64,000 nt of DNA from Patescibacteria group bacterium (lineage in GTDB: Bacteria; Patescibacteriota; CPR2; UBA1875), in assembly GCA_041737595.1 (NCBI GenBank), contig JBGSRK010000009.1, forward strand, positions 56,360-120,359, given 5' to 3'. Below are positions 50,881-52,729 of this stretch, piece by piece. The number at the start of each line of letters is the position of its first letter. Within the stretch, counting starts at the first letter, position 1. The notes below the pieces were generated by a model. It was not told where the DNA came from. It ran no database searches and saw nothing but the letters and a program-made list of their open reading frames with translations. The position numbers and the translations under genes are program-made.

Positions 50881-51909
50881 ATGGCCATAAAAGAAAAATC
50901 TGTTTTAGATGAAACAGATAAAGAAGAAGTAAAATCAGAAGATAAAAAAGAGTTAAAAACAAAAAAAGGAAAAAAGAAGTTTAAATTTACTCCGCTTACA
51001 TTAATTGTTATTGGGGTTTTAGTTTTAATAGGACTCGCAAACATCACTTATGGAGTAATGGTTTATAGTTATAATAACGAGAGTGCCATAATTAAAACCG
51101 CTTCAAGAGTCTTATTGTTCCCATCAGAAATTATTGAAGGTAAATATGTAACTGTGCATTCATATTTAAATCAGCTTGATATTCTAAAAAAATATTATGT
51201 TGAGTTTAAGAAAGTAGATTTTGCATCAGAAGATGGACAAAAAAAATTAGCAGAAATTAGAGTAGAGGTCCTTGATCGAATGGCAGAAGATGCAATTGTA
51301 GAAAAAGAAGCAGAAAGTCAACAGATTAAAATTGATTCAAACGATCTTAATGAAGAATATGACAAATTAATTGCCTCAAATGGAGGTCAGAAAAACTTTT
51401 CAGAAATACTAAAAAAATATTATGGTTTAACAATAGATGATTACAAAAAAGTATTTTTTGAACCAAAATTACTTCGTCAAAAATTAACTGATAAAATAAA
51501 TAGTGAAGAAGAAGAAACAGGAGTTGCAAAAAAGAAAGCTGAAGATCTTCTTACAAAAGCAAAAGCTGGTGAAGACTTCGCAAAACTAGCAACAGAATAT
51601 TCAGGTGACCCAGGTAGTGCAGCAAAAGGTGGTGATCTTGGTTATTTTGGAAAAGGTAAAATGGTACCTGAATTCGAAAAGGCTGCCTTTGATGCAAAAG
51701 TAGGAGATATCGTAGGCCCAGTAAAATCAGTTTATGGTTATCATATAATCAAAATTACTGACAAAAAAGGTGATGAAGTTAAAGCAAGCCATATTCTAAT
51801 TAAAACTCGTGATTTTAATGAATGGCTTTTAGAGAAAAAATCAGAAATTAAGCAAAAAAAATATCTTGGATTCTTCCCGGCCTACTGGATACTAATAAAA
51901 ACAGATTAA
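50881..51909 (+). CDS. PrsA/SurA-like parvulin peptidyl-prolyl isomerase
   Basis: DFAKLATEYSGDPGS..GGDLG, MVPEFEKAAF, YGYHII. Confidence 0.9.
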   Translation: MAIKEKSVLDETDKEEVKSEDKKELKTKKGKKKFKFTPLTLIVIGVLVLIGLANITYGVMVYSYNNESAIIKTASRVLLFPSEIIEGKYVTVHSYLNQLDILKKYYVEFKKVDFASEDGQKKLAEIRVEVLDRMAEDAIVEKEAESQQIKIDSNDLNEEYDKLIASNGGQKNFSEILKKYYGLTIDDYKKVFFEPKLLRQKLTDKINSEEEETGVAKKKAEDLLTKAKAGEDFAKLATEYSGDPGSAAKGGDLGYFGKGKMVPEFEKAAFDAKVGDIVGPVKSVYGYHIIKITDKKGDEVKASHILIKTRDFNEWLLEKKSEIKQKKYLGFFPAYWILIKTD

Positions 51910-51911
51910 CT

Positions 51912-51939
51912 AAAAAGCCCGCAAATAAGCGGGCTTTTT
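51912..51939. terminator. bidirectional intrinsic terminator
   Basis: AAAAGCCCGC-AAATAA-GCGGGCTTTTT. Confidence 0.75.
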
Positions 51940-51976
51940 CAAATTCGAATTATTTGTTAAAATAATCTCGTTATGC

Positions 51977-52050
51977 GCGGGTATAGTTTAGTGGTAAAAC
52001 GCGACCTTCCCAAGGTTGAGATACGGGTTCGATTCCCGTTACCCGCTCCA
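51977..52050 (+). tRNA. tRNA-Gly(CCC)
   Basis: GCGGGTA/TACCCGC, CGACC-TTCCCAA-GGTTG, TCCA end. Confidence 0.96.
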
Positions 52051-52222
52051 TCGTCCAAACAAACTATCACACTACGCAACTTAAAAAATTGGCTCCGCGT
52101 TTTCGTTGTTTCTCCTTGGCAAACAAAATCGACAGATTTTGTTTGGGATTAGAAGGAGGAATCGCGAAAAGATAAAGACGGCCTACATCGGCTCATCTAA
52201 ATCTAGAAACGAATTCCGTCGG
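52051..52222. repeat. two tRNA-abutting arms (arm 6 inverted, arm 3 forward) sharing one central palindrome
   Basis: CAAACAAAATC-GACA-GATTTTGTTTG at 52120-52145; spacer starts TCGTC and ends TTCC-GTCGG. Confidence 0.75.
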
Positions 52223-52388
52223 GCCGATGTAGCTCAGGGGCTCAATTGTTGCAGTCCCACACTTATGCCAGTGTAACTCAGTGGTAGAGTAACTCTTTCG
52301 TAAAGAGTAAGTCGTGGGTTCGATCCCCACCGCTGGCTCCAGATAAGTGTGGGATTGGTCGGTGGTTCGAATCCACCCATCGGCTCCA
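52223..52388 (+). ncRNA. tRNA-shaped shell with acceptor stem, T arm and CCA but no anticodon loop, enclosing tRNA-Thr
   Basis: GCCGATG-TAGCTCAG...GGTC-GGTGG-TTCGAAT-CCACC-CATCGGC-TCCA; 15-bp stem 52252-52266/52343-52357. Confidence 0.8.
52267..52341 (+). tRNA. tRNA-Thr(CGT), nested
   Basis: GCCAGTG/CGCTGGC, ACTC/GAGT D stem, ACTCT-TTCGTAA-AGAGT, GTGGG-TTCGATC-CCCAC, TCCA. Confidence 0.95.
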
Positions 52389-52459
52389 TATTTAGCAGAA
52401 TTCATAAATACAGTTGATATTTAGGCTCAAATCTGCTAAAATAGGCCCAGAGGTAATAA

Positions 52460-52729
52460 ATGGCATTAAAAAAAGAAGACAAAGAAAAAGTAATTAAAGA
52501 TTTAAAAACTGGGAAAAATGATACAGGTTCTCCAGAAGTTCAGGTTGGAATTTTTACGGAACAAATCAAAAAACTTACTGATCACCTTAAAGGTCATAAA
52601 AAAGACGAACATTCTCGTCGTGGTCTTCTTAAAATGGTTGGTAAAAGAAGAAGGCTCCTAGATTATTTACGCCATAAAGATGAAAATAGATATGACACTA
52701 TTATTAAAAAATTAGGTTTAAGAAAATAA
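52460..52729 (+). CDS. rpsO: 30S ribosomal protein S15
   Basis: [31 protein letters not shown]. Confidence 0.99.

Follow-up and report, generated by a model that had tools for sequence, protein, structure and literature searches.

What does it mean when a complete tRNA gene sits between the two ends of another? The question is raised by a 166-nt locus (52223-52388) in a 64,000-nt stretch of DNA, referred to here as the window, from the genome of a Patescibacteria group bacterium (assembly GCA_041737595.1, contig JBGSRK010000009.1, positions 56,360 to 120,359 of the forward strand). At this locus a tRNA-Thr(CGT) lies innermost, a 15-bp helix encloses it, and the two ends of a second Thr-type tRNA lie outermost. 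A first-pass annotation of the sequence had described this nested arrangement and attributed the intact outer stems and the helix to selection on the shell. We favor a different explanation, to which we assign a probability of about 0.7: the locus is the scar of a tRNA gene replacement by an inverted-repeat cassette that carried a tRNA of the same anticodon. The window is best explained as an aged example within a family of such same-anticodon nests. Throughout, G000 denotes the genome of the window, and the prefixes G, L and X denote other genomes, loci and sequencing runs.

An intact tRNA-Thr gene and the remains of a second one

The inner gene (52267-52341, plus strand) is called as tRNA-Thr(cgt) by ARAGORN and matches the Rfam tRNA family (RF00005) at 67.5 bits, well over the gathering score of 29. 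It has a cloverleaf with an anticodon, a 3' end like those of the genome's other tRNAs, and an encoded CCA, as has the window's tRNA-Gly. The outer RNA is recognizable as a tRNA at its ends. Its acceptor strands (52223-52229 and 52378-52384) form 7/7 Watson-Crick pairs, TAGCTCAG directly follows the 5' strand, and the T arm (GGTGG/TTCGAAT/CCACC, stem 5/5) is followed by T73 and an encoded CCA, so that acceptor stem, T arm, discriminator base and CCA are all present. The outer D arm is aberrant, and both sequence and fold lack a D stem and an anticodon arm; neither a D-stem-complementary strand nor an outer anticodon loop was found in the window's shell. Because both are missing, the shell cannot decode. 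The enclosing helix (52252-52266 with 52343-52357, the clamp) has 15 pairs, one of them G-U. The minimum free energy fold of the 166 nt is exactly the nest (-70 kcal/mol, z = -5.56, with 0/200 shuffles as stable), and the shell alone folds as acceptor stem, T arm and clamp hairpin (-42.5 kcal/mol). Every structural element that the first-pass annotation had listed (the stems, the helix, the 75-nt inner tRNA and the aberrant outer D arm) was thus confirmed, positions included. At E values up to 10, Rfam searches gave neither a second tRNA match nor a match to any other family at the locus, and when the inner tRNA was cut out, ARAGORN only forced a 'tRNA-Cys' with 2/4 D-stem pairs and an invented intron. 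A tmRNA-like domain was also considered and rejected, as position 3-70 is C-G and not G3-U70, and no tmRNA-family match falls on the nest.

Both components of the nest exist separately in related samples. A 13362-nt contig from another sample of the same study (X4) matches the window's tRNA-Gly and 52213-52240, skips 52241-52354 and resumes at 52355. In place of the skipped block it has 23 other letters, which supply a D-stem strand and a complete CGT anticodon arm. This contig carries the window's outer gene whole and free of a nest. In X2, a contig from another study, the tRNA-Gly (0 differences) is followed by 41 other letters and then by 52266-52345 (2 differences), with no shell, and the sequence differs from the window beyond 52345; this is the inner type alone. 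A third run (X3) contains the inner tRNA with 1 difference between unrelated flanks. As X4 has only the outer gene and X2 and X3 only the inner one, the nest joins two separate tRNA-Thr(CGT) lineages.

The comparison with X4 divides the locus (all on the plus strand) into parts of different origin. The 5' remnant of the shell (52223-52240) holds the acceptor 5' strand, nucleotides 8-9, the D-stem 5' strand and the start of the D loop, and at its end the X4 contig runs on as an uninterrupted tRNA. The block foreign to the intact allele spans 52241-52354 (114 nt), and its right edge coincides exactly with the end of an inverted repeat. It opens with 14 nt absent from the intact allele (52241-52254), the last 3 of which lengthen the clamp; by eye these look like a degenerate D-loop/D-stem piece, such as also lies left of the repeat in L046 and L047. 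There follow a 12-nt terminal inverted repeat (TCCCACACTTAT, 52255-52266, the 5' arm of the clamp), the inner tRNA, a type found alone elsewhere, and a one-base spacer (G) with the opposite repeat (ATAAGTGTGGGA, together 52342-52354, the 3' arm). The two repeats (52255-52266 and 52343-52354) match perfectly over 12 bp, and the non-tRNA part of the insert comes to only 39 nt. From 52355, where the X4 joint resumes, to 52388 lies the 3' remnant, with variable loop, T arm, acceptor 3' strand, T73 and CCA. Some 30 nt upstream of the shell, 52186-52194 is an exact 9-base copy of the outer gene's 3' end (acceptor strand and the next two bases), which may be debris of a yet older Thr gene.

Alleles with and without an insert also coexist among relatives. 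The ten tRNA-Thr(CGT) loci compared comprise seven plain genes, one with decayed shell fragments (L002) and two nests with both shell halves (L004, L007). The shell pieces of L007 are those of the plain tRNA of its congeners (L006, L008), and are interrupted in the D loop, the anticodon loop (where the inner tRNA lies) and the T loop. Judged by eye, both the outer halves and the inner gene of the window match types seen in relatives: the former the type that forms the only gene in L019, L022 and L024, the latter the L002/L003 type. No close relative with exactly this nest was found, the metagenome scan for it (see below) having used too loose a pattern.

With these alleles in hand, the reality of the locus can be judged. 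Only one run, probably the source, contains the stretch in full, and a 5232-nt Logan contig of that run spans 52000-52500 with 0 differences. The first-pass annotation had asked whether reads span the locus; since this second assembly was built from the same reads, it rules out an assembler-specific artefact only, and independent support for the architecture comes from its recurrence in other genomes (see below). An assembly chimera of two strains' tRNA-Thr genes would be conceivable in a metagenome bin of 143 contigs with 3.5% contamination, given that tRNA genes are conserved repeats and that related samples contain both tRNA types. However, neither tRNA accounts for the clamp arms or the 14-nt piece, the identical 5.2-kb contig was also produced by a second assembler, and nests recur in named public records and in 19 further genomes, each assembled independently. 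We regard a chimera as extremely improbable.

Same-anticodon nests recur, and their shells decay

For a census we used a strict pattern, namely a tRNA T arm, acceptor strand and CCA with a second such 3' end within 5-35 nt, a spacing too close for an independent tRNA; the reversed pattern served as control. The pattern occurs in 3/28 genomes of the order and, across a sample of 401 genomes of the phylum, at 25 places in 20 genomes from 17 families, as against 1 place for the reversed control. Four of the 25 places drop out, one for want of a tRNA (L043), one at the edge of a contig (L048) and two as second layers of double nests; the other 21 give distinct complete inner tRNAs. Almost all 25 are a complete tRNA in a shell of the same isoacceptor. 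Apart from G000, the architecture occurs in 19 genomes of this sample. Nests are sporadic within families, and by the strict pattern 0/4 other genomes of the window's family have one.

With one genome per species across all prokaryotes, at least 119 stretches held at least 127 matches. Among the 127 matches listed, 53 have no tRNA, 29 are a tRNA with a copy of its own 3' end, 36 are a tRNA with another 3' fragment and no strict 5' half (several of these being decayed nests) and 9 are strict nests. Record titles are of the Candidate Phyla Radiation (CPR) type for 6/9 strict nests; among the titles listed, L128 and L137 are labelled otherwise, and none is given for L155 and L172. The architecture also appears in public records under the names Berkelbacteria, Woykebacteria, Kerfeldbacteria, Wolfebacteria and 'Patescibacteria group'. 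In viral contigs, 78/127 matches contain an inner tRNA and 3 appear nested. A scan of metagenomes with a Thr-specific 3'-junction pattern proved too loose, as none of the stretches it returned (at least 119) adjoins a tRNA and all are chance matches.

Partial tRNA duplications have a familiar source, since integrative elements that target tRNA genes leave them as attachment (att) sites beside the intact tRNA. Such remnants differ from the nest in having no upstream 5' half and in being a fragment of the tRNA's own end, whereas in the window the intact gene lies between the two halves of a different Thr gene, all within 166 nt and with no integrase. In other phyla (e.g., L061, L078, L087, L104, L132) what the strict pattern mostly picks out is a tRNA behind which its last 24 or more bases are directly copied, in some cases more than once (29/127 of the matches listed); these look like attachment-site remnants rather than nests.

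The match in identity extends to the anticodon wherever it can be read. The outer anticodon loop is legible in 10/33 bacterial nests, and in 10/10 it is the same 7-mer as in the inner tRNA (L049 by eye); in the remaining 23/33 it is not legible by the 7-mer test. In eight of the ten (L033, L037, L045, L049, L051, L106, L108, L112) the insert divides the outer loop, which a 4-5-bp stem closes, and in two (L046, L047) the loop stands undivided on the 3' side. While the inner tRNA is in place, ARAGORN fails to report the outer genes even with introns allowed. Once the inner tRNA is removed, it calls the same anticodon for the outer gene in L045, L051, L106 and L108, the four clean cases to which reliable calls of this kind are confined. 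The position of the insert within the anticodon loop varies (34/35, 35/36 or 37/38), and some inserts lie in the D region.

The helix around the inner tRNA is a second common feature, and here the first-pass annotation was borne out in calling it a dedicated clamp. The duplex energy of the flanks (30 nt on each side) has a median of -21.9 kcal/mol in 21 nests compared with -10.4 kcal/mol for 15 further tRNAs at these loci (Mann-Whitney p = 4e-5, a value that overstates independence, the genomes being related). The ends of the inserts fall into three classes shared across isoacceptors. The first, (T/C)CCC(G/A)CAC ... GTG(C/T)GGG(G/A), occurs in the window as well as in Thr, Ala, Arg and Leu nests; the second, CCTGCCCGCC ... 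GGCAGGCGGG either as such or permuted, in nests of Val, Cys, Thr and Trp tRNAs; and the third has an invariant 17-mer as its right end. This 17-mer, together with the left junction, is common to G007, G019 and G137, which belong to three families. In G137 the inner tRNA is clearly different, and the 3' shell is of another acceptor type and does not pair with its own 5' shell. As the 17-mer stays constant though cargo tRNA and 3' shell differ, the ends belong to the insert. Conserved ends and a perfect clamp helix indicate that something in the flanks is selected, whether through DNA or RNA. Judged from these sequences, the clamp could be constrained as DNA ends used in insertion, as a palindrome recognized by a nuclease, or as an insulating RNA or RNase III stem.

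The end motifs are also found outside nests. Searched with 1 mismatch in the 401 genomes, the 17-mer occurs in 7, of which the 2 exact matches are nests and the 5 one-mismatch matches are not at tRNAs. The stem CCCGCAC...GTGCGGG with no tRNA inside is present in 75/401 genomes compared with about 24 for a reversed control, with some copies terminator-like, so the motif is not specific to nests; the clamps could derive from such a dispersed hairpin. G000 itself has stand-alone hairpins of the class-A motif (C36:77896-77923, C120:8959-8983 and C21:21537-21582), at least one of them followed by a T run in the manner of a terminator, and near-identical GC-rich palindromes of 26-30 nt are dispersed in it (C56:430, C71:2103, C71:18246, C71:50191, C80:5565 and others). 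The GC-rich hairpin inserts may resemble type I-E CRISPR repeats; no Cas1 or Cas6e was found in G000, and no match to an Rfam CRISPR-DR family was found in five loci (E up to 5).

The two tRNAs of a nest differ sharply in how well they are preserved. Across the 21 nests, inner genes have 7/7 acceptor pairs in 21/21 and 5/5 T-stem pairs in 20/21, with both stems perfect in 20/21. For the shells, the best acceptor match is 7/7 in 14/21 (12% being the rate expected by chance) and the T stem is 5/5 in 14/21, with both perfect in 10/21. Some shells are half deleted or mosaic, and the parts retained vary from nest to nest, the anticodon loop being kept in L046/L047 and lost in the window, and the T loop broken in L007. 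Double nests add a further layer: in L046/L054 (G216) and L055/L057 (G326, Val), one inner tRNA is followed by two 3' shells, each after its own repeat arm. The middle shell of G216 has no 5' half; what remains, the 3' half, looks by eye like the working inner gene of the congener G231.

These data bear on the interpretation given at first pass, in which the shell itself is functional, either as a clamp-held, two-piece and anticodon-less tRNA mimic (a decoy, aminoacyl carrier or processing scaffold) or as a control on maturation of the inner tRNA. The perfect acceptor stem, T arm, T73 and CCA of the window's shell, its 15-pair clamp and its ability to fold alone at -42.5 kcal/mol all speak for this idea, as do clamps significantly stronger than ordinary tRNA flank pairing and cassette ends conserved across families. 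Selection is not needed, however, to account for the intact parts: 52223-52240 and 52355-52388 belong to an ordinary, functional tRNA-Thr(CGT) in a related sample (X4), so recency explains the intactness of the outer stems. Shells in every state from perfect to half deleted, the differences between nests in what is kept, and the sporadic distribution of nests within families also argue against it. A functional shell is accordingly unlikely, in our view. The architecture described at first pass is thus real and recurrent, and selection on the shell finds no support given the asymmetric decay. The inner gene is probably the one kept by selection, and the shell a scar rather than a selected tRNA mimic.

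Proposed gene replacement by a cassette, weighed against its rivals

Under the replacement reading, a cassette made of a tRNA-Thr(CGT) and a 12-bp GC-rich terminal inverted repeat would have taken the place of the resident gene's D-stem 3' strand and anticodon arm; the cassette and the 14 nt of older shell debris to its left would make up the 114-nt block 52241-52354. The inner tRNA would be the gene that the cell now uses, and the outer sequence the leftovers of the displaced gene (18 nt on the 5' side and 34 nt on the 3' side). The same-anticodon rule would follow most simply from survival, because an insertion in an essential tRNA gene survives only if a replacement is supplied. The unit would be mobile and without a promoter of its own, transcribed from the resident promoter upstream of tRNA-Gly. 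The tRNA-Gly(CCC) gene (51977-52050, plus strand, called by ARAGORN and Rfam) is preceded by a promoter-like site (51936-51963, plus strand, a consensus match only, with 9/12 hexamer positions), and none was found between 52051 and 52222. As the only promoter-like site upstream of the nest, 51936-51963 is the likely source of a predicted precursor transcript that runs from tRNA-Gly through the spacer into the nest, an arrangement that fits a promoter-less cassette relying on the resident transcription unit. From this precursor the inner tRNA would be released by RNase P and 3' processing. In RNA the inverted repeat may serve as a clamp separating inner fold and shell or as a stem for RNase III, an enzyme that G000 encodes, and/or it may provide the DNA ends used in insertion. 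Spread may occur with the conserved shell halves as homology arms, possibly helped by small GIY-YIG nucleases near tRNA genes.

The GIY-YIG genes of this genome give some substance to the last point. G000 has 8 GIY-YIG matches (seven small frames and one in a 481-residue frame), and three of the small frames lie directly upstream of, and on the same strand as, tRNA-Glu (C108:55924-56320, L178), tRNA-Gln (C21:9262-9640, L179) and tRNA-Asn (C108:113430-113700, L177). Each of these three genes is preceded by a degenerate copy of the tRNA's own 5' portion with a GC-rich hairpin of the nest-clamp motif classes. GIY-YIG frames also occur upstream of the nest in G007, G216 and G231 (Thr(CGT)) and near it in L083 (Cys). 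With such genes beside them, the tRNA loci of these genomes look like a playground for selfish DNA, and homing-type spread is plausible. Other recurrent neighbors of nests are ordinary syntenic genes, read from sequence as signal peptidase I and ParB.

Several observations weigh against this explanation. No target-site duplication was found at the junctions of the window's nest or of the clean nests, G000 has no second copy of the cassette (the 166-nt query matches fully at this locus only), and no mobilizing enzyme for it was identified. Of the features of a miniature inverted-repeat transposable element, the terminal inverted repeats are present (12 bp, with related ends in other nests), and target-site duplication and multiple copies are not. 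None of the 8 GIY-YIG matches in G000 is near 52 kb, so the window lacks an endonuclease beside its insert, and among 44 loci scanned only 4 genomes have such frames (5 in all) by their nests. Conservation is higher in the cassette ends than in the cargo. In distant families (Val L045 and L051, Thr L108, Cys L106), removal of the insert restores a flawless tRNA, and the perfect outer exons of these four loci could reflect long-term maintenance of the shell rather than recent insertion; the outer acceptor stem and T arm of the window are flawless too. In L007 all three inserts lie in loops and all four outer stems are kept, which, going by the sequence, hints at structure-aware insertion or selection. 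The genomes counted are mutually related, and the statistics thus overstate independence. Finally, six RNA runs contained just 0.04 of the sampled words, and the locus is in no RNA run.

The single genomic copy, with neither target-site duplication nor enzyme, would suit a one-off accident, in which a horizontally acquired tRNA-Thr(CGT) entered by illegitimate recombination or repair and the inverted repeat arose as a by-product, e.g., as an extended residual anticodon stem. In keeping with this, part of the clamp (CACTT/AAGTG) matches the anticodon stem of the intact allele. An accident sits poorly, however, with recurrence in 20/401 genomes and 17 families against 1 control match, with strict isoacceptor matching, and with the existence of a double nest. 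Nor can the end-motif classes of Thr, Ala, Arg and Leu nests all be derived from anticodon stems, and a 17-mer end is identical in three families. We judge an isolated accident to be about as improbable as a functional shell.

A true intron is a further alternative: RNase P and 3' processing would cut out the inner tRNA, the outer halves would be joined by ligation, and both tRNAs would function. In its favor are the perfect tRNAs that remain when the insert is removed from L045, L051, L106 and L108, and two viral contigs (L366, with Gly in Asn, and L397, with Asn in a Lys-type tRNA) that hold a tRNA of another identity exactly in the anticodon loop, with no clamp and perfect outer exons; without the insert each gives a 76-nt tRNA accepted by ARAGORN. 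Introns of this kind are also reported in the Lak megaphage paper (Devoto et al, 2019; PMC6784885). In the window, however, the shell has no anticodon or D stem to restore, and the sequence itself excludes splicing there. A bulge-helix-bulge is absent (the helix is continuous from the junction, with no 3-nt bulges), and the same was seen by inspection in L108 and L045. Neither the splicing endonuclease (PF01974) nor RtcB (PF01139) has a match in G000 (0 matches each, in an incomplete bin that is 96.9% complete). A search of 51900-52500 at E up to 10 gave no match to the group I core (RF00028), whereas the tRNA-Asn of G000, which served as positive control, contains a real group I intron (94.8 bits). 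Together these negatives make a true splicing pathway in this genome unlikely. An intron would also have no reason to carry the host gene's anticodon, and shells decay while inner genes do not. We consider a true intron at this locus very improbable. The control locus itself (C108:112849-113424, minus strand, L177) is a tRNA-Asn(GTT) missed by ARAGORN, its anticodon loop interrupted by a group I intron of about 500 nt whose reading frame we take, by eye, as HNH-like from its Cys/His motifs.

Likenesses to described systems and a possible selfish element

The first-pass annotation had not recognized the architecture from described systems, and this holds for bacteria, as full-text literature searches found no account of nested tRNA genes there. 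It holds less well for phages, where the single earlier mention was found. In its passages on tRNA introns, the Lak megaphage paper mentions one that could contain a tRNA gene of its own, calls such introns enigmatic and offers no mechanism (PMC6784885). The Lak cases described there resemble the nest in having a complete tRNA in the anticodon region of another tRNA, with alleles with and without the insert coexisting; the viral contigs L366 and L397 give the same picture. The Lak cases differ in residing in phage genomes, whereas the nest lies in a bacterial chromosome and combines the same anticodon, an inverted-repeat clamp and a broken outer gene. Set beside the Lak type, the nest has the whole inner tRNA; the window's outer gene is broken, and that of L045, L051, L106 and L108 is intact.

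Free-standing homing endonucleases offer a second comparison. The GIY-YIG nuclease SegB of phage T4 is described as driving the inheritance of a tRNA gene region (PMC2330249), and the account given there of such selfish DNA has it spread through a break in the naive allele and co-conversion of the flanks. Common to both are presence/absence polymorphism between close relatives at tRNA loci (here X4, and L007 against its congeners) and small GIY-YIG genes, which lie upstream of tRNA genes in G000 and of some Thr nests. On the other side, the window's nest has no endonuclease gene in or beside it, and its cargo is only a tRNA and inverted repeats.

In archaea, tRNA introns, mobile introns and split tRNAs (Fujishima et al, 2010, and the tri-split tRNA, both as covered in PMC10714607) share with the nest insertions in loops, the anticodon loop among them, transposable units and complementary flanks that join halves. 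Here, in contrast, there is no bulge-helix-bulge, the endonuclease and RtcB were not found, the insert is a full tRNA of the same anticodon and the window's outer gene cannot be restored. The meeting report PMC10714607 covers mobile archaeal tRNA introns and CPR rRNA introns, and its passages on these have no word on CPR tRNAs. Bacterial group I introns use the same insertion region, as the tRNA-Asn(GTT) of G000 exemplifies, but the window's locus is without a ribozyme core.

Apparently, then, the nests reflect a recurring and undescribed takeover of tRNA genes by same-anticodon copies in ultra-small bacteria. A bolder proposal, which we put forward tentatively and at somewhat less than even odds, is that they constitute an unrecognized class of minimal selfish element in CPR/Patescibacteria, a promoter-less 'cuckoo' cassette with a tRNA as its sole cargo. 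With the same reservation, such a cassette would be bounded by GC-rich inverted repeats, would enter loops of a resident gene of the same anticodon and, by taking over its promoter and essential role, would make itself unlosable. It is conceivable to a similar degree that re-invasion produces the double nests, that hairpin-only inserts and small GIY-YIG genes are parts of the same system, and that the tRNA-in-tRNA 'introns' of phages are relatives.

Although tRNA genes are held to be the most static of a genome, essential ones appear to be serially overwritten by incoming same-anticodon copies in these streamlined genomes, with layered scars as the result. Should the cassette prove a discrete mobile element, it would rank among the smallest on record, and would persist by 'addiction' alone, destroying an essential gene and supplying its substitute. 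The nests also offer a testable origin for the unexplained tRNA-bearing introns of huge phages. They account for tRNAs that tRNA finders report as oddly spaced or 'missing' in CPR bins, and they give work on RNase P and RNase III a natural substrate, a tRNA clamped in another fold.

G000 is a 1.09-Mb bin (relatives range from 0.4 to 2.1 Mb) that holds the usual tRNA set, with a standard tmRNA on another contig. The tRNA-Gly(CCC)-tRNA-Thr(CGT) pair is conserved among relatives (L002, L003, L004, L006, L008, L019, L022, L024). In the spacer between tRNA-Gly and the nest lies a long hairpin (52105-52165), and similar ones stand at the same place in L022 and L024, with two-sided changes in 3/25 predicted pairs (3 sequences only); the X4 relative skips 52056-52212, a span that covers this hairpin. 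Two relatives, L006 (G021) and L007 (G019), have extra tRNA-Gly 3' fragments just past the intact tRNA-Gly(CCC), and in the L007 fragment the T loop appears by eye to be swapped for a short TCCC...GGGA hairpin. In G000, 83/143 contigs (206 kb in total) have at least 46% G+C. A second tRNA-Thr(CGT) of the bin, at C19:1102-1175 on a 2.5-kb contig, lacks the encoded CCA that the window's tRNAs have and may be bin contamination.

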